Source: Tubiluchus corallicola (lineage: Eukaryota > Animalia > Priapulida). From it: 47,750 bases of DNA. Both the position numbers and the translations under genes were made by a program. Location of the stretch: contig JAQGDQ010001315.1 in assembly GCA_030141605.1 (NCBI GenBank), positions 1-47,750 of the forward strand, read 5' to 3'. A model generated the notes under the pieces. That model saw only the letters and a program-made list of their open reading frames with translations, searched no databases and had not been told where the DNA came from. Every line of letters starts with the position of its first letter. Position 1 is the stretch's first letter. Shown here piece by piece: positions 3,848 through 47,750 of this stretch.

Positions 3848-4614
3848 TAAAGATTGATTAACATACTAGTGTCTAAAGTTAAAGATTGATTAACCTACTA
3901 GTGTCCAAGTATCTAAAGTCAAAGACTGATTAACCTACTAGTGTCCAAGTGTCTAAAGTTAAAGATTGATTAACCTACTAGTGTCCAAGTATCTAAAGTC
4001 AAAGATTGATTAACCTACTAGTGTCCAAGTATCTAAAGTCAAAGATTGATTAACCTACTAGTGTCCAAGTATCTAAAGTCAAAGATTGATTAACCTACTA
4101 GTGTCCAAGTATCTAAAGTCAAAGATTGATTAACCTACTAGTGTCCAAGTATCTAAAGTCAAAGATTGATTAACCTACTAGTGTCCAAGTGTCTAAAGTT
4201 AAAGATTGATTAACCTACTAGTGTCCAAGTGTCTAAAGTTAAAGATTGATTAACCTACTAGTGTCCAAGTGTCTAAAGTTAAAGATTGATTAACCTACTA
4301 GTGTCCAAGTGTCTAAAGTTAAAGATTGATTAACCTACTAGTGTCCAAGTGTCTAAAGTCAAAGACTGATTAACCTACTAGTGTCCAAGTGTCTAAAGTT
4401 AAAGATTGATTAACCTACTAGTGTCCAAGTATCTAAAGTCAAAGATTGATTAACCTACTAGTGTCCAAGTGTCTAAAGTTAAAGATTGATTAACCTACTA
4501 GTGTCCAAGTGTCTAAAGTTAAAGATTTATTAACCTACTAGTGTCCAAGTGTCTAAAGTTAAAGATTTATTAACCTACTAGTGTCCAAGTGTCTAAAGTT
4601 AAAGATTGATTAAC
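3848..4614. repeat. 40-bp minisatellite, ~19 copies, in NISCH intron 1
   Basis: Unit (A/G)TCTAAAGT(C/T)AAAGATTGATTAACCTACTAGTGTCCAAGT repeated head-to-tail with few variant positions. Confidence 0.97.
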
Positions 4615-16907: not shown

Positions 16908-18692
16908 TTATTTGTGAGTCTTCAGGTGACGCTTTAAACCAGTAGATCGGACAAAAGCCGCACTGCACAGATCACACTTAAATGGCTTTGATCCAGTGTG
17001 AACTAGTAAATGTTGCTTCAAATGGCTTAAGCAAGTATATCCAGCATCACACTTCGTACACTTAATGAGTTCACCAGTGTGAAGTCGCAGATGACGTTTC
17101 AAATGATTAGATCTAGAAAAAGCCATATTACACTGAATACATTTAAATGGCTTTTCTCCTGTATGAATTACAAGATGGCGTCTCAGGTCAGCTGCTCGAT
17201 AACAGGCGAATTTACATTGAGTACAGTTAAATGACTTTTCTCCCGTGTGAGTTTTTAAATGATGTTTAAATGAACCTGAAAATGTAAAAGCTGCACCACA
17301 CTGAAAACATTTGAAAGGCTTCTCTCCTGTATGAATTCTAAGGTGCCTCTTCAAATGACCTGAATTAGCAAAAGCAGCAGCGCAGTAACTACACATGAAA
17401 GGTTTTTCTCCTGTGTGAGTTCTTAGATGTACTGCTAATGACCCTGACTGTGTGAAAGTTGCTTCACACCTGTCACATTTATAAGGCTTTTCTCCAGTGT
17501 GAATTCTTACATGTCGTTCCAAACGGCTTAAATAAGTAAAGGATGCACCACACTGGTCACACTTTAGAGATTTTTCTTTATGACTTTTTTGATGTTTCCT
17601 CAAATAGCCTGGCTGACTAAACTCCGCATCACACTGACCGCATTTAAAGGATTTCTCAGCTGTGTGAGTACTTCGGTGACACTTCAAATCATATAAACGA
17701 GTGAAAGCAGAATCACAGTGGTTACATCTGAATAGTTTTTCTCCAGTATGAGCTTTTATGTGTCGCTTCAGATTACATGACCATGTAAAAGCAGCATCAC
17801 ACAAACTGCACTTAAATGGCTTTTCAGCCGTGTGGATTCTTAGGTGTGCCTTCAGGGTAGCCTGTTGAGTAAAAGAGCCATCACATTGGTTACATTTAAA
17901 AGGCTTCTCCCCTGTGTGAGTTCTCAAATGACGCTTCAAATGGCTAGACCTGGCAAAGGCAGTACCACATTCACTGCACTTAAATGGTTTTTCTTGTGTG
18001 TGAGTTGATAAGTGTTGTTTCAAAACACTCGCATATGTAAAAGCAGAATCGCATTGACTGCATTTAAATGGTTTCTCTCCTGTATGAATTCTCAAATGTC
18101 GTTTCAAGTCACTTGACCAACTAAAAGCAGCTTCACAATGGTCACACTTAAAAAGCTTTTCCCCAGTGTGGTAGCTTGTGTGGCGCTTCAAAGAGCCAGG
18201 GTGAGAGAACTGAGCATGGCACCACTCACACTCGAAACATTTTTCAGCTGTACAAGTTTTTAGACTTTGACTTAAATTGTCACCGCCGTTTCCGGCCGAA
18301 GCATCGGGCTGTGTCAAAGGCTTAGTCTTGGCGCCTGTAACTTTATCACAGTCAGTGGAAATATTGCAATCATTTTCGATAGACAGAAAGGCAGCTTGAA
18401 TACCATGATACATTGCTTCGTCATTCCTAGTGTTTTCTATGTTAGCCAATGAAACACTGAGTTCACTTTTCATAGGTATAAAATTAACTTGGGAATCCAG
18501 ATCACATGATTTGCCGCTTTTGAAATCTTCAACATCATCTTCTGAATCACAAGGTTGAGATTTTACTCGTGCAAAATCAGTTTTTGTGTCCTGGACTTTT
18601 GACTTATCATTATCACAATCTTCGTCGTTGTTCGTCACATGATTAGGTTCAGTTTTAACAATTGCAGGATCTGATAGCTTGGCCTGTTCCAT
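16908..18692 (-). CDS. Tandem C2H2 zinc-finger protein (16 fingers, ~594 aa), single coding exon
   Basis: Sixteen C2H2 fingers with TGEKP-type linkers. Acceptor gtttgttttacag ends at 18717; first ATG (MEQAK) at 18692. The frame is open to the acceptor, so an upstream coding exon is possible. Confidence 0.93.
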   Translation of the reverse strand: MEQAKLSDPAIVKTEPNHVTNNDEDCDNDKSKVQDTKTDFARVKSQPCDSEDDVEDFKSGKSCDLDSQVNFIPMKSELSVSLANIENTRNDEAMYHGIQAAFLSIENDCNISTDCDKVTGAKTKPLTQPDASAGNGGDNLSQSLKTCTAEKCFECEWCHAQFSHPGSLKRHTSYHTGEKLFKCDHCEAAFSWSSDLKRHLRIHTGEKPFKCSQCDSAFTYASVLKQHLSTHTQEKPFKCSECGTAFARSSHLKRHLRTHTGEKPFKCNQCDGSFTQQATLKAHLRIHTAEKPFKCSLCDAAFTWSCNLKRHIKAHTGEKLFRCNHCDSAFTRLYDLKCHRSTHTAEKSFKCGQCDAEFSQPGYLRKHQKSHKEKSLKCDQCGASFTYLSRLERHVRIHTGEKPYKCDRCEATFTQSGSLAVHLRTHTGEKPFMCSYCAAAFANSGHLKRHLRIHTGEKPFKCFQCGAAFTFSGSFKHHLKTHTGEKSFNCTQCKFACYRAADLRRHLVIHTGEKPFKCIQCNMAFSRSNHLKRHLRLHTGELIKCTKCDAGYTCLSHLKQHLLVHTGSKPFKCDLCSAAFVRSTGLKRHLKTHK

Positions 18693-19685
18693 CTTTGCCA
18701 CCAAGATGTGTGAAATCTGTAAAACAAACTAATAATGATCACTGATTCTCTTGCAAAAAGATGTCACGAACTTAAATTTCGTTTTCAGTTGATTCTGTTT
18801 TCCAACAATGGATGTATGTTAAGAATAAAAGCAATTGATGTAATGTGGTCTTACAAGTAGACAGCAGCCTCATGGTACTTTAAGAATAGGGGTGTAGCCG
18901 TTTCTAAAGCTCGGGGGAGCAAGTGCAAAAAAGGCATGAAGACACATGAAGCAATTATTTTTTAATTTTCTATACCACAACAGACAGTATCTGTGTGAGA
19001 AGAAGATATAATAGTAATTAGATGTGGAACAATTTGATAGTTGGTTCAATTAAACAACCTTGACAAATGAGTAGCATAAATGCATGGCCATTTTAGAAAT
19101 ACGGAGGCAGGTTGGTTGAATGAAGTAACAATTCAATTCTTCCAAGACCGAGGCGAATAATAAAGGGTTCACTTTTATCGCACAAATAAGCTAAAGAGTA
19201 AAAAAAATTGTTAAAAGTTGCCATTTTTGAAAAATGTGCTCAAGGGAGGGACTGTTCTCTTTGCTATCCTAACTAAAAAGGTTAACTGGCGTAGAAAAAT
19301 TGTATGATAACAACGATGACATATTTGCTGTGTAACAAATATGTAACCTGCCAAAGTTTCAGTTTTCTTAACAAATAAAATGATGCCAGCCACTGTAGCC
19401 ACATGACTACTTAAGTGTAACTTATGACTAAAAAACTTACTTTTCACATTTTTTAACAATATTCTTAAATAGTGAATTTTAATTAAGTTCTTATTTACCG
19501 TTCTATGGTACTTTTATGTACTAAAATAAATGTGATATAAAGTGGATAAAAATAATAGCTTTTAGTGATTCTGACGTTCATATCGTCTTATTTCATTAAG
19601 TCAGTAATTTCTCCGACGATTCTAGATCAAAGTTTAAATGATTCTTGGGCCAGTCTCTGCTCCTTCCTGGTCAGTACATGCATAA

Positions 19686-24188: not shown

Positions 24189-25382
24189 TTAGATGTTGTG
24201 TTTCGCGTCCCAGTGGAGAATTTGTTTGTGAAAATGTTGTCTGTAGTAAGTGTGGTATTCAGTTTGGTCCAATTCCAATTTGACGCATGCATCTTGCGCC
24301 AAATCTGCTGGTGACGTCTTGGATAAGGTTTTCGTTGAACTATTAAATTGCCAAATCCAAGGTTTTGCAGATCCGAGAACTTCGCTTCAATTTAATGGGA
24401 CGTGAGCCTTCTGAGAGTTGGATGCCCGTACTACTTTATTACGCGAGCTTTAATTCTAGCACCTGGAAACACAAGTATTAGTCGTAAGATTTCCACATTA
24501 CTAGGTGCATCGACAGTTTTCGTAGCTAAGACCTGGCTTCTTTTCTCATCTATTAACTCAAAGAAAACTGATGATACAGTTTGTGCGTATGTTATTAGGT
24601 GTTCCGCTTGTTTGACAAAACATTCTGTGACAATCCTGTCGACGTCTGCGTCTTCTTTAAATATTGCATCATGCAATATCTTGTTCAAGACAGCTACTCG
24701 AATGATGAGTTCAGTGCTTTTAAGATCTTTCAGTTTTTCCCCTGCTTTCAACTCTTTGTTGTATTCAGTGTGGCTTTCTCTTATCAATTTATTTAACCGC
24801 TGATTTATCATCAAACTCCTAAGTGATACCTTCAGCTTGGTGATGTCGAAATAGAGCGTCCTCAACGAACTTCTCTTCTCTGTAGTTTTTCTCTTCAAAT
24901 TTTTTGGCCGCTTGTTCTGACTCTTCTGGCATCGGCAATACCGCCAAAGGATTAAGAAAATGAATCCGTCAATAAAACCGTCACCTCGGCAGGTTGTTTG
25001 GAGACGTTCGCAGTACAAATCTGTTTGTATAGCCCCAGCTATTGAGATGTTGCATGAGATCAGCGATATTCGCTTGCCAACTGGAGACGGACTGGTTCAC
25101 TGCTCTAAGCGCTAGCAAACAACTGCACCTCCCCAGAACCATCTCATTGCTCTCTAAGGTACATCCATACTTCGTCGCTACTAATAAGCACGTTTCAATG
25201 TTCGTTCTTTGGCTACTTGCTTCAGTAGTCCCTCTTTGGTACCACTTTTGAACAATATGTTTACCTCTCAGGTTTTCTTTGTATGAGCCAGCGGCTTTGT
25301 AATCACTGTACTCTCAGCTCTCGTTTTCCCGCATGATGGTGGCCCAGCATCGATAATGAAAACAGAAAGTAGTTGGGTTTGT
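24189..25382 (-). pseudogene. Decayed DUF3987/YfjI-like P-loop ATPase gene
   Basis: Across stops and frameshifts: Walker A VFIIDAGPPSCGKT (25322-25345), GTKEGL, Walker B VLISSDE (DE at 25171-25176), ISIAGAIQTD, GDGFIDGFIF, KSTELIIRVA and C-terminal FSDLQNLGFG. Preceded by the acceptor-like ttttttgtttcag. Confidence 0.7.
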
Positions 25383-25406: not shown

Positions 25407-25580
25407 TGTTAGCAAAGAGAATCATTGCTTTGTTAGTTAGCAGTAAATCAGATAGCCAGACATGGGCCAAACATTCAAATCTACGTTAAGTAGTGTTAGC
25501 AAAGAGAATCATTGCTTTGTTAGTTAGCAGTAAATCAGATAGCCAGACATGGGCCAAACATTCAAATCTACGTTAAGTAG
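25407..25580 (+). repeat. Perfect 87-bp tandem duplication at the 5' end of the ORF1 fragment
   Basis: TGTTAGCAAAGAGAATC...CTACGTTAAGTAG at 25407 and 25494. Confidence 0.92.
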
Positions 25581-26277
25581 CAAAGTCTCGAAAATTGACC
25601 AGGAATTGGATGCCATATCAAAATCACAGGAAGTTATTTCAGACATGTTTGATGGTTTTAAATCTGAGCTTGATGCAGCCAATCAAGACATTGCCAGACT
25701 TAAAACAGAAAACAACTCGCTTAAAGCAACAGTTAGCAAGCTACAAAAACAGGCACAGACAAATGCAATTGAGATCGACAAACTTGATCAGTACAGTCGT
25801 CGAGACTGCCTTGAAATATCAGGAATTCCGGTAATTGAACATGAAAATACAAATGCAATAGTTCTTAGTGTTGCCCGCAATATGGGAACTGCATTATCAC
25901 CAGAAGAAATTAGTATCTCCCACAGGCTCCCTAAGCCAAGAAAGGGTTACCCTAAAATTATTGCGAAATTTACCCAACGTGACAAACATGATGCAATGTT
26001 CAGAGAGAGAAAGAAAGCAGGGAACACATCGACCTTGGATTATTCTCGCTATACAGACAGTAAAATCTACATTAGTGAATCACTGACACAGAGACGACGT
26101 GAACTCTTTCGGATAGCGCTCAACTACAAAAAGCAACACAACTTTGCACACATTTGGACTGTCAACGGCAGGATTTTTCTGCGAGCCCATGATAATAGCC
26201 AGAAACTTACGATAGATTGTGTGTTAATGACCGTATGGTACACGAAAACACGTGGAAATGAAAGAATTGCAGGTTAG
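25549..26277 (+). mobile_element. LINE ORF1p fragment (CR1/L2/Crack type; coiled coil, RRM and FP25K-like C-terminal domain), with no ORF2 following
   Basis: Coiled coil, then LDQYSRRDCLEISGIP, ISISHRL, PKIIAKF, IYISESLT..RRELF, IWTVNGRIFLR. The last ~20 codons look unrelated. Confidence 0.85.
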
Positions 26278-26421: not shown

Positions 26422-26637
<216 letters not shown>

Positions 26638-30978: not shown

Positions 30979-31420
30979 GCTACCATGAGCATAAGTTCCA
31001 AAGCGACATGAACTAAAAAGTATTTACAAAAAAAAAGGAGACAGACAGTTAAAACTGCTGGTTTTCAAAGTGTTAAATTTGATAGAGAATCATTAAATTG
31101 ACAGATAAAGTGATCTGCGGCCAATTTGTAGAAGTTTATGATAGCTGTCAGTTGCAGCTGCCAAATGAGTGATACATCAGGCTTCCCATCTGAAAGCTCT
31201 CCAGCTTGCGCCTCCGCTTGCCTTCCAGTAAGACGTCTTGCGCAAAACCATGAGAAAGAATGATAAGAGATGAACTAGTTAAGTTAAGTTAAATTTATTT
31301 ATTTCTACTCTGCATCTGACAATTATAATAAAAATACAGATAATTTCACTGAAGCAAATATAAATATATATGCAATATTATCCTGAAATTACAACATTTT
31401 TAATTCTCCCTTCTTTTGTA

Positions 31421-31464
31421 GAGAGAGAGAGAGAGAGTGAAAGAGAGAGAGAGAGAGAGAGAGT

Positions 31465-31513
<49 letters not shown>

Positions 31514-31587
31514 CAAGAGAGTCAGTGAGGAAGAGAGAAAGAGAGAGGGAGAGAGTAAGAGAGAGAGAAAGACATAGAGAAACAGAA

Positions 31588-31630
<43 letters not shown>

Positions 31631-31631
31631 A

Positions 31632-31669
<38 letters not shown>

Positions 31670-31716
31670 CGAGGGAGAGAAAAAGAGGGAGAGAGAGAGA
31701 GAGAAAGAGAGAGAGA
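31421..31716. repeat. Degenerate (GA)n purine-rich microsatellite
   Basis: GA repeat with GAAA and GGGA interruptions. Confidence 0.95.
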
Positions 31717-33010
31717 TCGTATCGAAGACTGATACATACATGTCTCACATTACTGTACACGAAGATTTAGTGAAAACACTATTAAATAACGTCAATACGA
31801 GCAAATCTGTAGGTCCTGATGGAATAAGCAACAAAGTACTTAAGCTTTGTGCAGATTCATTATCAAGCCCATTAACCCGATTGTTTAACTTCTCATTACA
31901 GTCAGGTCATTTTCCTAGCTTGTTGCAAATGTCTGCCCCATACACAAAGGGGGAGATAGACAGCTTGTTTCGAACTACAGACCCGTGGCGCTACTTTCAT
32001 GTATGTCCAAGATTCTAGAACGCGTTGTCTTTAATCAGATGTATAACTACTTTGCTATTGATAATAACTTTTTGACGGAAAAGAACTCGGGGTTCAAATC
32101 AAACGATAGCACCATCAACCAGCTAGTTTCAATCGTTCACAATTTGTATACAAGTTTAGACGACGGTGCTGAAATCTGTAGCGTTTTTCTGGACATCAGT
32201 AAAGCTTTTGATAAGGTGTGGCATGTAGGCTTGATATTCAAATGAAAGCAGTATGGAGTAGGTGGCCAAGTTCTGTCTTGGCTATCATCTTACCTTCGAA
32301 ACCGAACACAAAGAGTAACGAACACAAAGGCAGATCTCAGAATAATTGAAAACTAGGCCAAACGTTGGATGGTTAAATTTAATCCTAATAAGACCGAAGT
32401 CATGCTTTTCTCCCGTAAATCCAATGCTCCTCAATATCCTACTCTGTATTTATCTAATACTCCACTGAAAACTGTAAATGTTCACAAACATTTAGGTATT
32501 GATCTTACATCTGACCTGAACTGGAACTATCACGTCTCAAAAATGGTAGACAAAGCAAATCTAAAGCTAAACAACTTTCGACGTGTGTCAGTTAATAGTT
32601 AATCCCAGAGCTACGCGGGAACGATTATTCATTACGGCTATTCTCCCTGCCATCGAATATGGTAACGTAGTATGGTCAGGATGCAGTGAATACAGTATAC
32701 GTTTGTTAGAAAATATTCAGCTAACTGCTGCTAGAATCTGTTCTGGCGCTATGTTTCGATCTTCCCCTGCAAGTATCTTGTCTGACAGCGGCTTCACTAA
32801 ATTAGTGACACGCTTTCATTATCATCGCCTATGTCTTTTTTACAAAATAATCAATGACTTAGTGCCCCACTATTTAAGTGCAATTCTGCCGCCAAAGGTT
32901 AACGAAGTTACCCCCTATTATATACGCAGTGGTACTAAATACAGAAATTTTAATTGCCGTTCTGTTAGCTGTGAAAAATCGTTTTTCATATCGACCATTA
33001 ACATTCTCGT
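31717..33010 (+). mobile_element. Degenerate CR1/L2-type LINE ORF2 with frameshifts and an internal deletion
   Basis: KSVGPDGI, NYRPVALLS, FLDISKAFDKVWH, VKFNPNKTE, HKHLGI, LENIQL.AARI. The PQGS/ADD core appears deleted near 32330. Confidence 0.85.
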
Positions 33011-35250
33011 GTGATTATTCTGATCATGATTTTATAATAATAGTAGACAAAACAAAACCAACCAAAAACAATACAGGCACAGTCTGGAAAACAGTCAGAG
33101 ATTATTCTACATATAATAAAGATATATTTCAAGATACTTTAACCAAATTGGACTGGAGTAATATTTACACAATGACTGACATTGACATGCAAATAAACAC
33201 ATTAATAAATAATATGGAATACTGCCTGGATATCTATGCACCGTATAAAAAAATTAAAATACATCAGCAGCAATTTAATGCAAAATCTGCCTGCCCTTGG
33301 GCGGATACAGAATTCGCAAAACTAAGACACAATAAAAATGAATTATATAGAACATATTTACATTTAAAAGGTAAAATCAATTACAATAATTACAAAAAGG
33401 CACGAAATAAATTTAATAGCTACAACAGGAAACTCAAAAATAAATATTATATTAATAAATGCAATGATGCAACTACACCTAAACAAAAATGGCATTTAAT
33501 TAATGACGTACTTAACAGATACAGAAACGATCAATTACAAATAAATAGTTTACGAGAAAATGACAGTATAATATCTGATCCAGTTGACATTGCTAACAAA
33601 TTAAATTCCACATTTATCAATCTTGGAAAATTTGACAACTTGCCACACCAACATAATGCAAATATACACAATATATACAAAAACCAATCAGTAATACAAT
33701 CCACTTTCTCATTTACTAGCGTCACAGAATACGACATCTTTAGAATATTAAACAGTTTAAATATAAATAAAGGAAGTGGACCCTCAGACATGCCAATAAA
33801 GATCTTAAAAGACTGTGCCAGCATCATTACTCCTCATCTAACATATATCACAAACCAAGTCTTAATGCGCTCAGAATTTCCAGCAGTGTGTAAACAAGCA
33901 AACATAACTCCAATATACAAGAAAGATGCTAAAGATGATGCTAAAAACTACAGACCAATCTCAGTAGTGCACGTACTAGCCAAAGTATTTGAAAGAGTTA
34001 TCTACAACCAAATAAACCATTACATTGAAAATAATAAGTTACTGTCAAATCATCAATTTGGTTTTAGAAAACTACATTCTACAATAGACGCGATAATTGA
34101 TGCCACTGAAAAGTGGCGTTACAACTTAAATAAAAATAAATATATAACAGCAGCATTTTTAGATCTAAGTAAAGCTTTTGACAGCCTCGATCACAATTTA
34201 CTACTAGACAACTTACGCCAACTAGGATTCGATTATACTTCTCTCAAACTAATTAATAATTACCTACACAATAGAAAACAAAGAGTCAAACTGAACAAAC
34301 ACACTTTTTCAGCATGGGACACACCACAGAGAGGCATCCCACAAGGTACGATATTAGGTCCATTACTCTTTTGTTTATACGTTAATAAAATTCATTTAGT
34401 TTTACATAATTCAGACTTAACACAATATGCCGATGATACAACACTCTATACAGCACACGCAGACTTTCTAACATCAAAAAATAATCTAGAAAAAGACATA
34501 ACAAATATAAATGCAGCATTTAACTATTTTGGTTTAAAAATGAATGATGATAAGACAGAATTTATGGTAATATCACCCAAATCCAATGACATTACTTCTA
34601 ATGCAACACTAAAAGTAGGTGACTGTTCCATAGAACAAGCAAAAACTGTAAAATTTTTAGGCATTACTGTCGACAATAAACTCACTTGGGATGAACAGTT
34701 TCATCAAATACACAACAAGATGGCATTAAGCACGACATTCTTACGCCAAACCAGAGGCCATCTAACCAAGAAAACAAAAATTCTCATCTACAAAAGTCTA
34801 ATATTACCACATTATCTATATGGTTGCACTTTACTTCAAAACGTTAAATATGAAAACTTTAGAAAACTAAATACAATGCAAAACTACGCACTTAGATTAA
34901 TTCATGGCTACTCTAACAAAACTGCTAAACAACATGCTGCTTCTGCAACAAGCTTAAGAACGTCCACAAAAATACCAATATTAGAAGCCTATCGAGATTA
35001 CAAAACACTGATATTTCTTTATAAATATATAAATAAACTGAGCATTCCATTTATAAACAATCCCTTAGCATTTATTCCTGATACCACATTGAACACTAGA
35101 ACATACAATTTAAAGCAAATTACAGTAAACAATAAATTTGGAAATAACTCTATATATCAAAACAGGCCATACATTTATGGAACTTACTACCCAGTGAAAT
35201 AAAACAAATAGAATCTCTCCACCACTTTAAAAAGAAATTAAAAGAATATC
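33011..35250 (+). mobile_element. Young 5'-truncated L2/Crack/Daphne-type LINE ORF2 (endonuclease C-terminus plus near-intact RT)
   Basis: DYSDHDFI (end of APE domain), NYRPIS, NHQFGFRK, FLDLSKAFDSLDH, GIPQGTILGPLLF, QYADDTT, KFLGI. A frameshift near 35160 continues as LWNLLP.EIK...FKKKLKEY. Confidence 0.92.
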
Positions 35251-35295: not shown

Positions 35296-35900
35296 ACACC
35301 ACACCATACCACTGCAGCACACCACACCACCCACACCATACGACTCCACCACATCACACCACACTGCACCACACCATACCACTGCACCACACCGCACCAC
35401 CCACACACCACACCACACCATACCACTCCACCAGACTGCACCACACAATACCACTGCACCACCCACACACCACACCACCCACACCATAATACTCCACCAC
35501 ATCACACCGCACAGCACCACACCATAACACCACACTGCACCACACCACCCACCCCATACCACTCCACCACATCACACCACACCATACCACTGCAGCACAC
35601 CGCACCACCCACACACACACCACCCACACCATGCGACTCCACCACATCACACCACACTGCACCACACCATACCACTGCACCACACCGCACCACCCACACA
35701 CCACACCACCCACACCATAATACTCCACCACATCACACCGCACTGCACCACACCATAACACCACACTGCACCACAACACCCACCCACACACCACGCCACC
35801 CACTCCATACCACACTACCCACACCACAACCCACACACCCTATCACCCCACCACACCATCCATAGCACAACACACAAAGCACACCACCACCACACCACAT
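35296..35900. repeat. Complex (CACCA)n microsatellite block 1
   Basis: CACCA-based, with recurring ACCATACCACTCCACCACATCACACC and CACTGCACC variants. Confidence 0.95.
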
Positions 35901-36865
35901 CAAATCCACCACCTCACGTGGTGATCATGATGTTGATGATGATGATGATGATGGTGGTGGCAACGATGACGACACCTATAGCACAAGCACCAACAGCACA
36001 GCATTACAACAAAACCATTCCAAACATTTTTCACAAAGTTGAAACTATGTGCTATAATATAATAAATAGCAAAGGCCCCGCAAAAGATTTTGCGTAAAAA
36101 ACCACGTATAATCAATAATACGCGAACATCCTACCTAGTCCACATTTATAACGCAAAGCCCGTAACATCATGCCTACTGTTTGTTTAACTAACGCAAACC
36201 CGTAGCAGGCAGCTTTTTGCTGAATTAAAGTTATAAGATTACAGCAGAGTACAATGGATGACGTCACAACAATGCCTTTGCGTCAACAGTTTTCTAAGCG
36301 AAAATTGCCGAAAATAGAACATCTAATTAACTCGCCAATACTCCTCTCGGTGGACTTGCCCTAAAATATAACCCACACCATCGTGTAGCCCTGTCCTTCC
36401 TCTTTGTAAAGAGCCCCATATCTCCTTCCTAGAGTGCCACCGGGAGACGCTAGAACGTTTTTTCCAAAGGCTATTTAGTCAAAATTTCGAAAAAAATCGC
36501 GAGTTGGGTCCGGGAAAACGCCCGTTACGGGACGCCGTGGCCCTCTCGCGAATTCTAAATAGGCCTATGACACCCATCGCTGAACCCGTTCCCGTTCTCT
36601 ACATCTCAGCCGTATAACTTTTGCAAAAAAACAGCCGAAAAATGGCCATTTTTGGAGGTTTTTTGCCGCCCGTTCCTCCCGGTGGGCCCGATTCGAAAAA
36701 TAAACCATCAATGAGATGACACTAGATCGAGACCTTTCGTTTGATATATAGATCGCCGCAAATGGTGCCCTCGTCTGGGCTGTAGCCTCGAATCTTATAT
36801 ATATACCAAGAATATTAATATAATAGACTAGCCAAACCCCACAAAAAGAATTTTGTGCACAAATC

Positions 36866-37692
36866 AACACACAACCCACACCACACCACTCCACCTCATC
36901 ACACCACACTGCACCACACCATACCACTCCACCTCATTGCACCACACAATACCACCACACCGCACCACACCATACCACCTACACACCACACCACCCACAC
37001 CATACCACTCCACCACATCACACCACACTGCACCACACCATACCACTGCACCACCCACACACCACACCACACCACCGACACCATAATACTCCACCACATC
37101 ACACCGCACAGCACCACACCATAACACCACACTGCACCACACCACCCACCCACCTACACACCACACCATACCACTCCACCACATCACACCGCACCGCACC
37201 ATACCACTGCAGCACACCGCACCACCCACACACCACACCACACCACCCACACCATACGACTCCACCACATCACACCACACCGCACCACACCGTACCACTG
37301 CACCACACCACACCGCACCACCCACGCACCACACCACACCACCCACACCATAATACTCCGCACTGGACCACACCATAACACCACACTGCACCACACCACA
37401 CCACCCACACCATACCACTCCACCACATCACACCGCACCACACCATACCACTCCACCTCATCGCACTACACTGCACCACACAATGCCACCACACCGCACC
37501 ACCCACACACCACACCACACCACCCACACCACCCACACCATAATACTCCACCACATCACACCGCACTGCACCACAACAGCCACCCACACACCACGCCACC
37601 CACTCCATACCACACTACTCACACCACACCCTATTACCCCACCACACCATCCATAGCACAACACACAAAGCACAGCACCACCACACCACATC
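36866..37692. repeat. Complex (CACCA)n microsatellite block 2
   Basis: Same motifs as block 1, longer. Confidence 0.95.
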
Positions 37693-38989
37693 AAATCCAC
37701 CACCTCACGTGGTGATCATGTTGATGATGATGATGATGGTGGCAACGATGACGACACCTATAGCACAAGCACCAACAGCACAGCATTACAACAAAACCAT
37801 TCCAAACATTTTTCACAAAGTTGAAACTATGTGCTATAATATAATAAATAGCAAAGGCCCCGCAAAAGATTTTGCGTAAAAAACCACGTATAATCAATAA
37901 CACGCGAACATTCTACCTAGTCCTCATTTTTAATACAAAGCCCGTGCAGCTTTTACTGAATTACAGCAGCGTAGCAGCTTTTTGCTGAATTAAAGCTATA
38001 AGATTATAGACAGAATACAATGGATGACGTCAGAACAATGGTTTTGCGTGAGCAGTTTTCTAAGTGAAAATTGCGAAAAATAGAACCTCTAATTAACTCG
38101 TCGGTGCTCCTCTTGGTGGACCTGCCCTAACATATAGCCCACATCATCGTGTAGCCCTGTCCTTCCTCTTTGTAAAAAGCTATATATCTCCTTCCGAGAA
38201 TCCCACCAGGCGCCGCTAGAACGTTTTTTCCGCAGGCCGTTTGGTCAAAATTTCGAAAAAATCGCGAGTTGGGTCCGGGAAAACGCCCGTTGCGGGGCGC
38301 CCTGGCCCTCTCGCGAATTCTAAATATGCCTACTACACCCACCGCTGAACGGGCTATCTATCCATACCCAGCACCCCCCTCGGCCTGTTCCCGTTCTCTA
38401 CATCTCAGCCGTATAACTTTTGCAAAAAACGGCCGAAAAAGGGCCATTTTTGGAGGTTTTTCGCCTCCCGTTCCTCCCGGTGGGCCCGATTCGAAAAATA
38501 AACCATCAATGAGAAGACACTAGATCGAGACCTTTCGTTTGATATATAGATCGCCGCAAATGGTGCCGTCGTCGAAGCTGTAGCCTCAAATCTTATATAT
38601 ATATAAAGCCCATACCAAGAATATTAATATAAGAGTATAGATATAGATATATATTAAGATACCAAGAATATTAGTATAAGAGATATTAATATTGAAAAGT
38701 CAGAAGAATTCTGTTTTAATTTGGTTAATTTAATTTAATGATAATACTAATAATAGTAATATAAATTGCAAATCAGAATTTTCTTTCGGATAAATTTTGT
38801 GGCCCTGAAAAGGGCCGGTTGGTTATATTTAAGGGCCTGTAGCACCGTTCTTCCTCTTTCTGATGAGCCATATATCTCCTTCCGAGAGTCCCACCAGGCG
38901 CCGCTAGAACATTTTTCCGCAGGCTGTTTGGTCAAAATTTCGAAAAAATGTTCGTAAGCAGTGGTGGTTCTCGATGATTCATATGAAGT

Positions 38990-39597
38990 TCAGTTGAAGA
39001 AATTGTACACGCAGTTGGATCCACGTCGTCTGTTTTGAATAGGATGTATATTTTGCTGTTGTGGTAATTGTTGCTGTTGTTGTAATAGTTGTTGCTGTTG
39101 TTGTAATTGTTGTTGTTACTGTTGTTGTATGCGTGAAATGCTTTCAAGTTGTGTTTGCACATGTGCCATGAAATGTCCAAGAATTTGTTGTTGTTGTTGT
39201 TGATGTTCCTGTTCCTGTCCTTGTTCCTGTCCTTGTTCTTGTCCTTGTTCCTGTCCTTGTTCCTGTCCTTGTTCCTGTCCTTGTTCCTTGTCAATTGGAT
39301 TCAACTGCAATTTTTCCATTTTCTGTAACATAGACATATTTTGTTAAAAAAACAAAGATTTTTCAAACAATATGGAAAATTATTCTTCATTTCATTTTAT
39401 GCATAACATAACATGTATGAAACCAAACATGTTATTCAGAAAACTTTAGACTTAAATAGTTTTAGATATTTTGATAATAAATGCTAATGTAAATTAATAT
39501 AAGAGAAATTTATTACCTTCGAAATACTGTTTTTTCCTCCGAAGACAAGACAAAGATAAAGAATGCCAAAAAATAATAATGTCAATGTGAAACGCAT
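38990..39597 (-). pseudogene. Secreted polyQ gene copy A1 (exons 39597-39517 and 39322-38990) with a premature stop
   Basis: Same structure as A2, but CAA>TAA at 39116-39118, an expanded (GQEQ)n tract, and an in-frame 33-nt shorter NRRR region. Confidence 0.7.
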
Positions 39598-40181
39598 CTT
39601 GTGATTGTTTATTAGACTTGTGAAGCAAAAATTGCCAAAAATAGAACATCTAATTAACATTTACAGTCTGTGCGTTAGGTAAGTGCTGAAAGTTTGGCGG
39701 CTACAGATTTTTATAGCTCGCCAGGGATTAAAGACGAGTGAATTGTTACATTGCGGACGTTAGAGTACACGTCTTAATTGTTCTTGTTACGCGGAAGTTA
39801 GAGTATTTTTTTTTGAAATTTTGACCGAAATTGAACGATATTATTTGATTGAATATTAACCACTAAACGGTTAAAACTGAGTTTTATTTGACATATGCAA
39901 TGTGTATATTATTGTTATGAAGGAAACAAAAATAAAAAATATTGTGTTTGAATTAATGTTTAAAATTAAATTTTAATAATTAGGAGACAGTTGAATTTGC
40001 AAAATCAGAATTTTTGTTCGGATAAATTTTGTGGCCCTGAAAAGGACCGGTTGGTTATTTTATGCAGATCTCTATGCAGAAGTGGTGTATTTCCTGTTGG
40101 TTATTTTATGCAGATCTCTATGCAGAAGTGGTGTATTTCGTCGTGGTGCTCTCACTGACAGCGTACTGGTGTTTGGATTCC

Positions 40182-40394
40182 TCATTGTGAGTTATAGAAA
40201 TTGTAAATTATACAATTGTTCCCTCTGGTTGGGCGCCGTCTTTGTGGAAAGTATGGCCGTTGTCTGTATTGTCTGTTTCTGCGATTTATTTTTTGCTGTT
40301 GTTGTAATTGTTGCCGTTGCTGTTGCTGTATGTGTAAAATTCGTTCAAGTTGTGTTTGCACGTGTGCCATGAATTGTCCAAGAATTTGTTGTTG
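40182..40394 (-). pseudogene. Diverged paralog B1 of the polyQ gene, probably a pseudogene
   Basis: QQQILGQFMAHVQTQLERILHIQQ...YRQRPY...GNNCIIYNFYNSQ*. Two in-frame TAA codons lie upstream and no signal exon was found. Confidence 0.6.
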
Positions 40395-41133
40395 GTGTTA
40401 TTGTTGTTAATTATTATCATTTTTCGCAGTTACTATTTTCTTGTTTTTCGCGCCAAATCAAAGCCGTACTGCATTTTGGCTATATATAACTTGTGTATGA
40501 GTTCTCAGCTTACAGTATATAGAGGCAAATAATGGCCAATACGTTCAAAACGATATTATTTGATTGAATATTAACCACTAAACGGTTAAAACTAAGTTTT
40601 ATTTGACATATGCAATGTGTATATTATTGTTATGAAGGAAAGAAAAATAAAAAATATTGTTTGAATTTTAAATTTTAATAATTAGGGGAGAGTTGTTCAA
40701 TGGCACGACACTAGATCGAGACCTTTCGTTTGATGTATAGATCGCCGCAAATGGTGCCCTCGTCGGGGCTGTAGCCTCGAATCTTATATATAAATATATA
40801 TATTAAGATACCAGCGAAATTAATATAAGAGATATTAATATTGAAAAGTCAGAAGAATTCTGTTTTAATTTTGTTTTTTAAATTTAATTTAAATTAATTT
40901 AATAAATTGCAAATCAGAATTTTCTTTCGGATAAATTTTGTGGCCCTGAAAAGGGCCGGTTGGTTATATTTAAGGGCATGTAGCCCCGTTCTTCCTCTTT
41001 CTGATGAGCCATATATCTCCTTCCGAGAGTCCCACCAGGCACCGCTAGAAGGTTTTTTCCGCAGGCTGTTTGGTCAAAATTTCGAAAAAATGTTCGGAAG
41101 CAGAAGTGGTTCCATCATATCATCATGATATCA

Positions 41134-41737
41134 TCAGTTGAAGAAATTGTACACGCAGTTGGATCCGCGTCGTCTGTTGTTGTATGGGCGTTGTCTATAT
41201 CGTCGTCTGTTTTGTCTGGGATGTATATTTTGCTGTTGTGGTAATTGTTGCTGTTGTTGTAATAGTTGTTGCTGTTGTTGTAATTGTTGTTGTTGCTGTT
41301 GTTGTATGCGTGAAATGCGTTCAAGTTGTGTTTGCATATGTGCCATGAATTGTCCAAGAATTTGTTGTTGGTGTTGTTGTTGTTGATGTTGTTCCTGTTC
41401 CTGTCCTTGTTCGTGTCCTTGTTGCTGTTCAATTGGATTCAACTGCAATTTTTCCATTTTCTGTAACATAGACACATTTTTGTTAAAAAAACAAAGATTT
41501 TTCAAACAATATGGAAAAATTATTCTTCATTTCATTTTATGCATAACATAACATGTATGAAACCAAACATGTTATTCAGAAAACTTTAGACTTAAATAGT
41601 TTTAGATATTTTGATAATAAATGCTAATGTAAATTAATATAAGAGAAATTTATTACCTTCGAAATACTGTTTTTTCCTCCGAAGACAAGACAAAGATAAA
41701 GAATGCCAAAAAATAATAATGTCAATGTGAAACGCAT
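41134..41737 (-). CDS. Putative secreted polyQ/Arg-rich protein, copy A2 (135 aa; exons 41737-41657 and 41460-41134)
   Basis: Exon 1 MRFTLTLLFFGILYLCLVFGGKNSISK is signal-peptide-like. AAG|gtaata donor, 196-nt intron, tatgttacag acceptor, phase-0 join to KMEKLQLNPIEQQQ...NRRRGSNCVYNFFN*. Confidence 0.72.
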
Positions 41738-41821
41738 CTTGTGATTGTTTATTAGACTTGTGAAGCAAAAATTGCCAAAAATAGAACATCTAATTAACAT
41801 CTACAGTCTGTGCGTTAGGTA

Positions 41822-41855
41822 AGTGCTGAAAGTTTGGCGGCTACAGATTTTTATA
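41822..41855 (-). promoter_or_regulatory. TATA box plus Inr-like element upstream of gene A (TATA also at 39708-39715, 43987-43994, 46126-46133)
   Basis: Minus strand TATAAAAATCTGTAGCCGCCAAACTTTCAGCAC. The TATA begins 28 nt before the A of TCAGC (41827). Confidence 0.55.
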
Positions 41856-42321
41856 GCTCGCCAGGGATTAAAGACGAGTGAATTGTTACATTGCGGACGT
41901 TAGAGTACACGTCTTAATTGTTCTTGTTACGCGGAAGTTAGAGTATTTTTTTTTGAAATTTTGACCGAAATTGAACGATATTATTTGATTGAATATTAAC
42001 CACTAAACGGTTAAAACTGAGTTTTATTTGACATATGCAATGTGTATATTATTGTTATGAAGGAAACAAAAATAAAAAATATTGTGTTTGAATTAATGTT
42101 TAAAATTAAATTTTAATAATTAGGAGACAGTTGAATTTGCAAAATCAGAATTTTTGTTCGGATAAATTTTGTGGCCCTGAAAAGGACCGGTTGGTTATTT
42201 TATGCAGATCTCTATGCAGAAGTGGTGTATTTCCTGTTGGTTATTTTATGCAGATCTCTATGCAGAAGTGGTGTATTTCGTCGTGGTGCTCTCACTGACA
42301 GCGTACTGGTGTTTGGATTCC

Positions 42322-42534
42322 TCATTGTGAGTTATAGAAATTGTAAATTATACAATTGTTCCCTCTGGTTGGGCGCCGTCTTTGTGGAAAGTATGGCCGT
42401 TGTCTGTATTGTCTGTTTCTGCGATTTATTTTTTGCTGTTGTTGTAATTGTTGCCGTTGCTGTTGCTGTATGTGTAAAATTCGTTCAAGTTGTGTTTGCA
42501 CGTGTGCCATGAATTGTCCAAGAATTTGTTGTTG
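42322..42534 (-). pseudogene. Paralog B2
   Basis: Same as B1. Confidence 0.6.
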
Positions 42535-43273
42535 GTGTTATTGTTGTTAATTATTATCATTTTTCGCAGTTACTATTTTCTTGTTTTTCGCACCAAATCA
42601 AAGCCGTACTGCATTTTGGCTATATATAACTTGTGTATGAGTTCTCAGCTTACAGTATATAGAGGCAAATAATGGCCAATACGTTCAAAACGATATTATT
42701 TGATTGAATATTAACCACTAAACGGTTAAAACTAAGTTTTATTTGACATATGCAATGTGTATATTATTGTTATGAAGGAAAGAAAAATAAAAAATATTGT
42801 TTGAATTTTAAATTTTAATAATTAGGGGAGAGTTGTTCAATGGCACGACACTAGATCGAGACCTTTCGTTTGATGTATAGATCGCCGCAAATGGTGCCCT
42901 CGTCGGGGCTGTAGCCTCGAATCTTATATATAAATATATATATTAAGATACCAGCGAAATTAATATAAGAGATATTAATATTGAAAAGTCAGAAGAATTC
43001 TGTTTTAATTTTGTTTTTTAAATTTAATTTAAATTAATTTAATAAATTGCAAATCAGAATTTTCTTTCGGATAAATTTTGTGGCCCTGAAAAGGGCCGGT
43101 TGGTTATATTTAAGGGCATGTAGCCCCGTTCTTCCTCTTTCTGATGAGCCATATATCTCCTTCCGAGAGTCCCACCAGGCACCGCTAGAAGGTTTTTTCC
43201 GCAGGCTGTTTGGTCAAAATTTCGAAAAAATGTTCGGAAGCAGAAGTGGTTCCATCATATCATCATGATATCA

Positions 43274-43876
43274 TCAGTTGAAGAAATTGTACACGCAGTT
43301 GGATCCGCGTCGTCTGTTGTTGTATGGGCGTTGTCTATATCGTCGTCTGTTTTGTCTGGGATGTATATTTTGCTGTTGTGGTAATTGTTGCTGTTGTTGT
43401 AATAGTTGTTGCTGTTGTTGTAATTGTTGTTGTTGCTGTTGTTGTATGCGTGAAATGCGTTCAAGTTGTGTTTGCATATGTGCCATGAATTGTCCAAGAA
43501 TTTGTTGTTGGTGTTGTTGTTGTTGATGTTGTTCCTGTTCCTGTCCTTGTTCGTGTCCTTGTTGCTGTTCAATTGGATTCAACTGCAATTTTTCCATTTT
43601 CTGTAACATAGACACATTTTTGTTAAAAAAATAAAGATTTTTCAAACAATATGGAAAATTATTCTTCATTTCATTTTATGCATAACATAACATGTATGAA
43701 ACCAAACATGTTATTCAGAAAACTTTAGACTTAAATAGTTTTAGATATTTTGATAATAAATGCTAATGTAAATTAATATAAGAGAAATTTATTACCTTCG
43801 AAATACTGTTTTTTCCTCCGAAGACAAGACAAAGATAAAGAATGCCAAAAAATAATAATGTCAATGTGAAACGCAT
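43274..43876 (-). CDS. Putative secreted polyQ/Arg-rich protein, copy A3 (135 aa; exons 43876-43796 and 43600-43274)
   Basis: Same exons, splice sites and open frame as A2. Confidence 0.72.
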
Positions 43877-44454
43877 CTTGTGATTGTTTATTATACTTGT
43901 GAAGCAAAAATTGCCAAAAATAGAACATCTAATTAACATCTACAGTCTGTGCGTTAGGTAAGTGCTGAAAGTTTGGCGGCTACAGATTTTTATAGCTCGC
44001 CAGGGATTAAAGACGAGTGAATTGTTACATTGCGGACGTTAGCGTCTTAATTGTTCTTGTTACGCGGAAGTTAGAGTATTTTCTTTTGAAATTTTGACCG
44101 AAATTGAACGATATTATTTGATTGAATATTAACCACTAAACGGTTAAAACTGAGTTTTATTTGACATATGCAATGTGTATATTATTGTTATGAAGGAAAC
44201 AAAAATAAAAAATATTGTGTTTGAATTAATGTTTAAAATTAAATTTTAATAATTAGGAGACAGTTGAATTTGCAAAATCAGAATTTTCTTTCGGATAAAT
44301 TTTGTGGCCCTGAAAAGGGCCGGTTGGTTATTTTATGCAGATCTCTATGCAGAAGTGGTGTATTTCCGGTTGGTTATTTTATGCAGATCTCTATGCAGAA
44401 GTGGTGTATTTCGTCGTGGTGCTCTCACTGACAGCGTACTGGTGTTTGGATTCC

Positions 44455-44667
44455 TCATTGTGAGTTATAGAAATTGTAAATTATACAATTGTTCCCTCTG
44501 GTTGGGCGCCGTCTTTGTGGAAAGTATGGCCGTTGTCTGTATTGTCTGTTTCTGCGATTTATTTTTTGCTGTTGTTGTAATTGTTGCCGTTGCTGTTGCT
44601 GTATGTGTAAAATTCGTTCAAGTTGTGTTTGCACGTGTGCCATGAATTGTCCAAGAATTTGTTGTTG
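44455..44667 (-). pseudogene. Paralog B3
   Basis: Same as B1. Confidence 0.6.
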
Positions 44668-45400
44668 GTGTTATTGTTGTTAATTATTATCATTTTTCGC
44701 AGTTACTATTTTCTTGTTTTTCGCACCAAATCAAAGCCGTACTGCATTTTGGCTATATATAACTTGTGTATGAGTTCTCAGCTTACAGTATATAGAGGCA
44801 AATAATGGCCAATACGTTCAAAACGATATTATTTGATTGAATATTAACCACTAAACGGTTAAAGTTTTATTTGACATATGCAATGTGTATATTATTGTTA
44901 TGAAGGAAAGAAAAATAAAAAATATTGTTTGAATTTTAAATTTTAATAATTAGGGAGAGTTGTTCAATGGCACGACACTAGATCGAGACCTTTCGTTTGA
45001 TGTATAGATCGCCGCAAATGGTGCCCTCGTCGGGGCTGTAGCCTCGAATCTTATATATAAATATATATATTAAGATACCAGCGAAATTAATATAAGAGAT
45101 ATTAATATTGAAAAGTCAGAAGAATTCTGTTTTAATTTTGTTTTTTAAATTTAATTTAATTTAATTTAATAAATTGCAAATCAGAATTTTCTTTCGGATA
45201 AATTTTGTGGCCCTGAAAAGGGCCGGTTGGTTATATTTAAGGGCATGTAGCCCCGTTCTTCCTCTTTCTGATGAGCCATATATCTCCTTCCGAGAGTCCC
45301 ACCAGGCACCGCTAGAAGGTTTTTTCCGCAGGCTGTTTGGTCAAAATTTCGAAAAAATGTTCGGAAGCAGAAGTGGTTCCATCATATCATCATGATATCA

Positions 45401-46015
45401 TCAGTTGAAGAAATTGTACACGCAGTTGGATCCGCGTCGTCTGTTGTTGTATGGGCGTTGTATATATCGTCGTCTGTTTTGTCTGGGATGTATATTTTGC
45501 TGTTGTGGTAATTGTTGCTGTTGTTGTAATAGTTGTTGCTGTTGTTGTAATTGTTGTTGTTGCTGTTGTTGTATGCGTGAAATGCGTTCAAGTTGTGTTT
45601 GCATATGTGCCATGAATTGTCCAAGAATTTGTTGTTGGTGTTGTTGTTGTTGATGTTGTTCCTGTTCCTGTCCTTGTTCCTGTCCTTGTTCGTGTCCTTG
45701 TTGCTGTTCAATTGGATTCAACTGCAATTTTTCCATTTTCTGTAACATAGACACATTTTTGTTAAAAAAATAAAGATTTTTCAAACAATATGGAAAATTA
45801 TTCTTCATTTCATTTTATGCATAACATAACATGTATGAAACCAAACATGTTATTCAGAAAACTTTAGACTTAAATAGTTTTAGATATTTTGATAATAAAT
45901 GCTAATGTAAATTAATATAAGAGAAATTTATTACCTTCGAAATACTGTTTTTTCCTCCGAAGACAAGACAAAGATAAAGAATGCCAAAAAATAATAATGT
46001 CAATGTGAAACGCAT
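45401..46015 (-). CDS. Putative secreted polyQ/Arg-rich protein, copy A4 (139 aa; exons 46015-45935 and 45739-45401)
   Basis: Same structure, with an in-frame 12-nt insertion (extra GQEQ) and an R>I change (RYIQRPY). Confidence 0.72.
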
Positions 46016-46553
46016 CTTGTGATTGTTTATTATACTTGTGAAGCAAAAATTGCCAAAAATAGAACATCTAATTAACATCTACAGTCTGTGCGTTAGGTAA
46101 GTGCTGAAAGTTTGGCGGCTACAGATTTTTATAGCTCGCCAGGGATTAAAGACGAGTGAATTGTTACATTGCGGACGTTAGAGTACACGTCTTAATTGTT
46201 CTTGTTACGCGGAAGTTAGAGTATTTTCTTTTGAAATTTTGACCGAAATTGAACGATATTATTTGATTGAATATTAACCACTAAACGGTTAAAACTGAGT
46301 TTTATTTGACATATGCAATGTGTATATTATTGTTATGAAGGAAACAAAAATAAAAAATATTGTGTTTGAATTAATGTTTAAAATTAAATTTTAATAATTA
46401 GGAGACAGTTGAATTTGCAAAATCAGAATTTTCTTTCGGATAAATTTTGTGGCCCTGAAAAGGGCCGGTTGGTTATTTTATGCAGATCTCTATGCAGAAG
46501 TGGTGTATTTCGTCGTGGTGCTCTCACTGACAGCGTACTGGTGTTTGGATTCC

Positions 46554-46765
46554 TCATTGTGAGTTATAGAAATTGTAAATTATACAATTGTTCCCTCTGG
46601 TTGGGCGCCGTCTTTGTGGAAAGTATGGCCGTTGTCTGTATTGTCTGTTTCTGCGATTTATATTTTGCTGTTGTTGTAATTGTTGCCGTTGCTGTTGCTG
46701 TATGTGTAAATTCGTTCAAGTTGTGTTTGCACGTGTGCCATGAATTGTCCAAGAATTTGTTGTTG
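46554..46765 (-). pseudogene. Paralog B4 with an additional 1-nt frameshift
   Basis: gtgtaaattcg here versus gtgtaaaattcg in B1-B3 (near 46708). Confidence 0.6.
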
Positions 46766-47497
46766 GTGTGTTGTTAATTATTATCATTTTTCGCAGTTAC
46801 TATTTTCTTGTTTTTCACCAAATCAAAGCCGTACTGCATTTTGGCTATATATAACTTTTGTATGAGTTCTCAGCTTACAGTATATAGAGGCAAATAATGG
46901 CCAATACGTTCAAAACGATATTATTTGATTGAATATTAACCACTAAACGGTTAAAACTAAGTTTTATTTGACATATGCAATGTGTATATTATTGTTATGA
47001 AGGAAAGAAAAATAAAAAATATTGTTTGAATTTTAAATTTTAATAATTAGGGGAGAGTTGTTCAATGGCACGACACTAGATCGAGACCTTTCGTCTGATG
47101 TATAGATCGCTGCAAATGGTTCCCTCGTCGGAGCTGTAGCCTCGAATCTTATATATAAATAATATATATTAAGATACCAGCGAAATTAATATAAAGATAT
47201 TAATATTGAAAAGTCAGAAGAATTCTGTTTTAATTTTGTTTTTTAAATTTAATTTAAATTAATTTAATAATTGCAAATCAGAATTTTCTTTCGGATAAAT
47301 TTTGTGGCCCTGAAAAGGGCCGGTTGGTTATATTTAAGGGCATGTAGCCCCGTTCTTCCTCTTTCTGATGAGCCATATATCTCCTTCCGAGAGTCCCACC
47401 AGGCACCGCTAGAAGGTTTTTTCCGCAGGCTGTTTGGTCAAAATTTCGAAAAAATGTTCGGAAGCAGAAGTGGTTCCATCATATCATCATGATATCA

Positions 47498-47750
47498 TCA
47501 GTTGAAGAAATTGTACACGCAGTTGGATCCGCGTCGTCTGTTGTTGTATGGGCGTTGTATATATCGTCGTCTGTTTTGTCTGGGATGTATATTTTGCTGT
47601 TGTGGTAATTGTTGCTGTTGTTGTAATAGTTGTTGCTGTTGTTGTAATTGTTGTTGTTGCTGTTGTTGTATGCGTGAAATGCGTTCAAGTTGTGTTTGCA
47701 TATGTGCCATGAATTGTCCAAGAATTTGTTGTTGGTGTTGTTGTTGTTGA
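47498..47750 (-). CDS. Copy A5, 3' part of exon 2 (cut by the window edge)
   Basis: ...ILGQFMAHMQTQLERISRIQQ...GSNCVYNFFN*, matching A4. Confidence 0.65.
   Translation of the reverse strand, partial: QQQQHQQQILGQFMAHMQTQLERISRIQQQQQQQLQQQQQLLQQQQQLPQQQNIHPRQNRRRYIQRPYNNRRRGSNCVYNFFN

Follow-up and report, generated by a model that had tools for sequence, protein, structure and literature searches.

Our analysis of the window, i.e., the whole 47,750-nt stretch of DNA examined here, points to a tandemly repeated gene for a secreted, glutamine-rich protein. The full reading that we favour, at a probability of about 50%, is that of a spliced gene with a truncated second copy (A), whose message ends at a histone-type stem-loop and not at a poly(A) site. 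One repeat unit contains both A (40182-40409) and B (41134-41460) as sub-units on the minus strand. The initial annotation compared them codon by codon and inferred protein-level selection; it missed the likely place of B as the second exon of a larger gene, the truncation and decay of A, and the histone-type stem-loop that lies behind both.

The seven silent codon pairs listed in that comparison are all found on the minus strand as written. Given as B/A, they are H CAT/CAC (41338/40362) and R CGC/CGA (41317/40341) in the core, and Y TAT/TAC, R CGC/CGG, G GGA/GGG, N AAC/AAT, and C TGC/TGT in the tail. The three motifs described as preserved, ILGQFMAH.QTQLERI, YRQRPY, and G.NC..YNF.N, are likewise present in A (40182-40397) and in B. 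Not mentioned were four core replacements (M/V, S/L, R/H, and Q/R) and a pair of nonsense differences in A (CAA/TAA, at 40409 and 40400); nor was it noted that 4 of the 10 differences within the core fall in CpG context. When the core is aligned frame-blind and ungapped over 105 nt, four silent changes stand against four replacements, which is not significant (permutation p = 0.20), and extension to 117 nt gives p = 0.26. Within these 117 nt the antisense Leu frame even has a lower omega than the Gln frame (0.20 versus 0.28 at kappa 1), because the two nonsense changes of A are silent in the Leu frame; two codon pairs of that antisense frame contain stops. YRQRPY falls into register in only one of six frame-blind DNA alignments, so the alignment of the tail depends on the protein. 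With the tail register taken from the protein, the figure for the hand-picked motifs (11 silent, 8 replacement, p = 2e-4) is therefore circular.

This bias was removed by aligning the whole of A and B as protein in all six frames and counting every paired codon. As a neutral null, simulations with transition and CpG bias and with in-frame indels were passed through the same aligner (1000 runs). In the Gln frame 64 codon pairs contain 17 silent and 19 replacement differences, and pN/pS is 0.32 compared to null medians of 0.81-0.84 (P<=0.001). The tail taken separately gives 0.34 (P = 0.004-0.009), and the coding pS between A and B is approximately 0.4. The claim of past purifying selection on the Gln-frame protein thus holds once motif picking is eliminated. 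With all 64 pairs this frame has the lowest ratio of the six and lies well below the neutral null; the other frames are higher (Asn 1.59, Thr 0.61, antisense Leu 1.01, Cys 0.43, Val 1.05). The initial annotation had favoured the Gln frame over two competitors. One of them, the open Asn-rich frame, is rejected as the coding frame by its pN/pS of 1.59. The other, the antisense Cys-rich frame, is also low because it has its third positions in common with the Gln frame. Simulated selection on Gln gave median Gln/Cys ratios of 0.28/0.41 and selection on Cys gave 0.43/0.29, compared to the observed 0.32/0.43, and the observed gap between the two frames was reached in 57% of runs with selection on Gln versus 1% of 1000 runs with selection on Cys. 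The low Cys value fits a shadow effect of selection in the Gln frame, and the preference for Gln over Cys stands as well.

The same frame-specific constraint bears on the idea that these repeats are non-coding satellite DNA, in which CAA repeats mimic a Gln frame and the silent changes stem from alignment bias and CpG decay. This idea could draw on the insignificant result for the core taken by itself, the CpG context of part of the core differences, the protein-guided alignment of the tail, and the failure to find a homologue. However, when transition and CpG bias were built into the null and the identical aligner was used, no more than 1 of 1000 runs attained the observed value, and a full gene anatomy surrounds B. 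The aligner-matched null has already largely refuted the satellite explanation, to which we assign only a minute probability, and the original statement that this is not drifting satellite DNA is borne out. Real coding in the Gln frame is very likely.

Beyond the aligned region, the DNA around B predicts a larger gene, and B is probably exon 2 of a tandemly repeated two-exon gene for a secreted Gln-rich protein. All of the following elements lie on the minus strand. TATA boxes and initiators keep a characteristic spacing, and by this rule a core promoter is predicted at 41823-41855, with a TATA box (41855-41849) and, at a spacing of 28 nt, an initiator-like motif whose A lies at 41827; the flanks of this promoter are kept in paralog contigs. 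The predicted exon 1 coding sequence (41657-41737) comprises 27 codons from the ATG at 41737. Signal peptides combine a basic N-region, a hydrophobic core, and small residues at positions -3 and -1. The exon 1 peptide has a basic N-terminal end, a hydrophobic core (best 12-residue hydropathy 2.84), and small residues ahead of the predicted cut, and both hydropathy and a chance test agree with a signal peptide: none of 2000 resamples of the DNA upstream yielded an exon-1-like ORF ending at a phase-0 donor, and at a looser threshold 1 of 2000 did. Based on consensus motifs for splice sites and branch points, a phase-0 GT-AG intron of 196 nt and 80% AT is predicted at 41461-41656, with a T-run and a branch-point-like motif before the acceptor. 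It is predicted in all four complete B copies, in each of which exon 1 is in phase with exon 2. The predicted exon 2 coding sequence (P0001, 41134-41460) would add 108 amino acids, 40 of them Gln, with a predicted long helix and a basic Arg/Tyr tail containing one Cys.

An in-frame ATG occurs at 41475 in most contigs and at 41469 in the window, and judged by the sequence an unspliced start of B at such a codon is possible. B might then be an intronless, histone-style gene starting at ATG 41475 or 41469 and encoding an intracellular Gln-rich protein, with the signal exon serving as an alternative or unused start. In most contigs three in-frame ATGs fall within seven codons (41475 being the variant site), TATA-like and initiator-like motifs occur 29 nt apart within the predicted intron, and this intron is unusually conserved. 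However, these internal promoter-like motifs are degenerate and lie in 80% AT DNA, whereas the signal exon is far beyond chance expectation and in phase, and its ATG, hydrophobicity, and frame are kept across paralogs. We therefore regard an intronless gene as improbable and retain the two-exon model.

Paralogous copies outside the window were studied in contigs from four DNA runs of two studies that contain the stretch. Three runs (X1, X2, and X4) represent one sample, which may be the source of the window, and the fourth (X3) belongs to the second study. In the coverage listed, neither run X5, labelled as the same species, nor run X6, presumably RNA, reached the exons, which speaks neither for nor against expression. 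Variants were read from the best-supported 40 of 85 and 40 of 72 substitutions, together with the best-supported 12 of 48 and 12 of 87 for indels. Coding frames contained 25 of these substitutions, and 21 remained after four duplicate A sites were dropped. Two contig types keep the ATG and an M-R-F-T start, hydrophobic as far as displayed, behind a different and shorter 5' UTR, and one of the two occurs in both studies. One X1 contig joins an exon-1-like start to a Gln core (joints 41716 and 41688-40329, equal depth). Read by eye among the best-supported indels, those in exon 1 of the paralog contigs are +3, -6, and -3 and lie outside any triplet repeat, and none of the eight non-coding events is a multiple of three. 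Among the window copies, all five indels in exon 2 are multiples of three, as compared to 3 of 18 non-coding events, although the exon 2 indels sit in repeats of 3 and 12 nt, where such lengths are favoured in any case. Of the 21 best-supported coding changes, 7 are silent and 14 change a residue, 10 of the latter in A; by gene, the silent fraction is 4 of 8 in the B exons and 3 of 13 in A, whose changes include one nonsense mutation. When the window copy is compared with the main paralog contig, exon 1 has diverged more than the intron (there at most two substitutions plus one gap among the differences listed). This is the reverse of the usual pattern and counts against the gene model.

The genes are arranged in a head-to-tail tandem array of units of about 2.14 kb each, which according to self-BLAST begins at 38506 and runs to the end of the window (38506-47750) and beyond. 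Each unit pairs a single B gene with a single A fragment. Identity to unit 1 amounts to 99.5% for unit 2, 98.7% for unit 3, and 88% for the initial, B-only part. Further B copies, all on the minus strand, include a second intact gene (43274-43876; stem-loop 43082-43097), a third intact gene with a 12-nt in-frame expansion (45401-46015; stem-loop 45209-45224), a divergent copy on the edge of the array, in which a premature stop ends at 39116 (38990-39597; stem-loop 38801-38816), and a fifth copy cut by the window end (47306-47750; stem-loop 47306-47321). Hence, three of the four complete B copies are intact and one has a premature stop. A is a 5'-truncated, decaying paralog of B. The fragment at 40182-40409 retains 71 open codons of the Gln frame behind two in-frame stops at its 5' end, a second A fragment was located by self-BLAST at 42322-42549, and others lie at 44455-44682 and at approximately 46590-46790, again on the minus strand. 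None of the four has exon 1 or the intron, and the last is frameshifted. A and B each have, upstream, a copy of a spacer segment of 150-160 nt (40549-40695 and 41974-42133), the two being 89% identical. That it is common to both suggests that the unit arose from an older duplication accompanied by loss of the 5' part of A.

A dispersed repeat, which we take to recall non-autonomous Helitron-like elements, occupies 35297-38635 as a tandem pair of copies that are 82% identical; inside it lies a long minisatellite of the CACAC type. The 25 longest out of 92 pairs revealed no clear terminal inverted repeats in it. The gene array starts at the right end of its second copy (38506-38635), and three pieces of the repeat recur in every array unit, their original order lost. 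The right-end piece (40697-40792, plus strand) opens each B-containing segment. Another piece (41768-41798) lies within an 80-nt stretch of the predicted 5' UTR (41742-41821, minus strand) that is missing or replaced in three paralog contig types, with joints at 41741-41822, 41715-41821, and 41716-41825. The third piece (40979-41091, plus strand; 90% identical to 38150-38262) accounts for a 113-nt addition to the 3' UTR of B, and loose contig ends run on from it into the repeat. The 19 nt directly before the stem-loop of B (40958-40978) look like a stretch of the repeat in inverted orientation (36358-36376) and may be the microhomology by which the repeat piece entered this UTR.

This association might indicate that a once-coding gene was captured and tandemly amplified by a mobile repeat and is now a dead relic, the signal of selection being purely historical. 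The start of the array at the right end of the repeat and the repeat pieces in each unit would agree with such an origin, as would the breakage of A in 4/4 copies and the premature stop in one of the complete B copies. Yet promoter, splice sites, frame, and 3' signals are kept in 3/4 complete B copies, and exon 1 is in frame in the paralog contigs. The young, near-identical array copies are uninformative on selection in either direction. On balance we consider a dead relic quite improbable, less so than satellite DNA.

The window is AT-rich animal DNA and also contains LINE remnants and two C2H2 zinc-finger ORFs. The latter are long single-ORF genes on the minus strand (10620-12116 and 16908-18728; 498 and 606 codons) whose N-terminal regions are acidic, and a homologue search with the first 135 residues of the former found none. 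A LINE-type reverse transcriptase ORF (32878-35202, plus strand; Pfam RVT_1, E 4e-36) abuts a broken reverse transcriptase remnant (31919-33014, plus strand). A 244-codon ORF (25543-26277, plus strand) with a coiled-coil start matches Pfam Baculo_FP_2nd above the cut-off and is probably a LINE ORF1-type remnant, and a stop-free frame of 221 codons (24431-25096, minus strand) has no Pfam match at cut-off. Simple repeats include a minisatellite at 3868-4614 (40-nt unit, 18.7 copies, 97% matches) and two long GA microsatellites (26422-26637 and 31420-31716).

Behind the stop codons of both A and B lies a stem-loop of the histone type. A pattern search retrieved nine such structures, one behind each of the nine Gln cores and all on the strand of the gene, where 0.01 are expected by chance; elsewhere in the 47.7-kb window the pattern does not occur. 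The Rfam model Histone3 (RF00032) recognizes seven of the nine above its gathering score of 34, B's with 39.7 bits. The element of B (40916-40962, minus strand) consists of the 16-mer 40957-40942 within A/C-rich flanks and a purine-rich motif at approximately 40928-40923 that resembles a histone downstream element (HDE), and the hairpin is present in both the MFE and the centroid fold. In 7/9 copies this HDE-like motif lies 13 nt past the hairpin. The two A stem-loops at 40033-40048 and 42173-42188 (minus strand) contain a single G-U pair each, show changes in the HDE-like motif, and fall below the gathering score. Changes of hairpin and HDE thus affect two of the four A copies and none of the five B copies. 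The distance from the stop codon is 133 nt in A, whose UTR has a 46-nt duplication, and 176 nt in B. A close match of the 3' regions of A and B is limited to an island of about 60 nt that takes in the flank, the hairpin, and the HDE-like motif; directly upstream of the hairpins, the UTRs can no longer be aligned. A third paralog contig, found in both studies, has a stop, a different short UTR, and again the stem-loop (joints 40164-41134 and 40967-40144). A histone gene within the array unit was rejected as a candidate, as no unit ORF matches a histone family.

Judging from these features of the DNA, the odds that the stem-loop is used to form message 3' ends appear to be even or marginally better. 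Its conservation has other conceivable causes. In units 3 and 4 the hairpin of A is exactly that of B, so that gene conversion could explain part of the shared island. Moreover, ATTAAA hexamers occur 38-73 nt past the hairpin of B and AATAAA occurs 144 nt past that of A, which would make a poly(A) end available downstream, though in AT-rich DNA. The same spliced, secreted gene may therefore produce a polyadenylated message, with the stem-loop as a mere passenger that derives from a histone gene end and was spread by conversion. The A(A/T)TAAA hexamers downstream of the hairpins, the conversion visible between the ends of A and B, and the mosaic structure of the array unit with its three dispersed-repeat pieces are compatible with this scenario, and introns are reported, in PMC3661734, to be incompatible with stem-loop processing. 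However, hairpin, flanks, and HDE-like spacing remain at consensus despite the synonymous divergence of A and B and next to upstream UTRs that have become unalignable, a third paralog with another UTR retains the hairpin, and hairpin changes are confined to A copies. We regard a passenger stem-loop as rather unlikely, though as the strongest competitor of a functional one.

If the stem-loop is functional, transcription would start at the TATA/initiator of B, the intron (41656-41461) would be spliced out, the product would enter the ER and lose its signal peptide, and the 3' end would be formed by SLBP/U7-directed cleavage a few bases past the hairpin. The outcome would be a long Gln-rich helix followed by a disordered, strongly basic tail with RRR sites and one Cys. 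We tentatively propose, at slightly less than even odds, that a spliced mRNA for a secreted non-histone protein goes through the SLBP/U7 histone 3' pathway, with a multi-copy gene family and ER-translated messages that lack a poly(A) tail.

The exon 2 product is 37% Gln and 4% Gly (40 Gln, 4 Gly, and 5 His in 108 aa) and lacks an RGD motif. Its first 33 residues have a net charge of -3 and its last 29, which contain the RRR runs and the Cys, one of +9. AlphaFold, run with a three-row alignment, placed residues 14-70 in one helix and predicted a disordered tail at low overall confidence (mean pLDDT 70, pTM 0.38). Searches for relatives of P0001 retrieved no homologue at E<=1 among 986 candidates, and an alignment (A2) matched none of 7963 longer candidates. 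Atlas searches with B and with A gave no usable match, none were detected in metagenome contigs, viral contigs, and a sequence index, and in Pfam P0001 had nothing at the curated cut-off, only matches below it. A Pfam search at E<=0.01 with 31 ORFs (24 of at least 40 aa in one unit and 7 from the upstream repeat) was equally negative. The C-terminal motif presumably recalls a Crypton- or Polinton-type protein; a fragment of such a protein was dropped as a candidate after no match appeared in Pfam, the longer candidates, or viral contigs. As to its role, we can only guess from composition and anatomy that the product is a bulk-made extracellular defence or structural protein with the cationic tail as its working end. 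Defence and a structural or adhesive function seem equally plausible guesses, any other role less so, and a peptide precursor least.

If the SLBP/U7 reading is true, two rules would be broken, namely that this type of 3' end is confined to histone messages and that splicing excludes stem-loop processing. Such messages would be invisible to poly(A)-selected transcriptomes and would point to a gene class that is missed by poly(A)-based annotation. A spliced, secreted, non-histone family with the full signal offers a direct and cheap test of both rules, and even with the hairpin unused there remains an undescribed, presumably secreted orphan family in a tandem array. Both rules are found in the literature. 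Passages of PMC4604434 describe histone mRNAs as the only known non-polyadenylated cellular mRNAs and report no true non-histone target of human SLBP by CLIP. Metazoan histone mRNAs are stated to be intronless in an excerpt of PMC13525598, and parts of PMC3661734 report that in mammalian cells an intron prevents stem-loop processing. A literature search of titles and abstract openings found no published non-histone animal gene that ends in a histone stem-loop.

In its 3' end the gene described here resembles metazoan replication-dependent histone genes, with a 16-nt hairpin, a 4-nt loop, A/C-rich flanks, a purine-rich motif approximately 13 nt downstream, a position soon after the stop codon, and a multi-copy tandem layout. 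Unlike those genes, B has a predicted intron and signal peptide and its product is not a histone; thus, it is not a histone gene by the criteria of protein and intron absence. An intron and a stem-loop coexist, however, in bdelloid rotifer histone genes, which according to sections of PMC2642717 combine an intron, a 16-nt stem-loop, and a putative HDE in one gene. In contrast to the present family these genes encode histones, and their hairpins lie 40-80 nt past the stop, whereas the distance here is 133-176 nt and the UTR contains insertions or duplications. In anatomy only, there is a likeness to the SpTransformer (Sp185/333) genes of sea urchins, which are described in parts of PMC5491942 as small, clustered two-exon genes with a hydrophobic leader in exon 1 and a repeat-rich exon 2 of variable length. 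The B genes share the two exons, the leader in exon 1, the repeat-rich exon 2, and the clustering. The proteins differ, as SpTransformer proteins are, in the same source, Gly-rich and His-rich and contain RGD, whereas the product predicted here is dominated by Gln.
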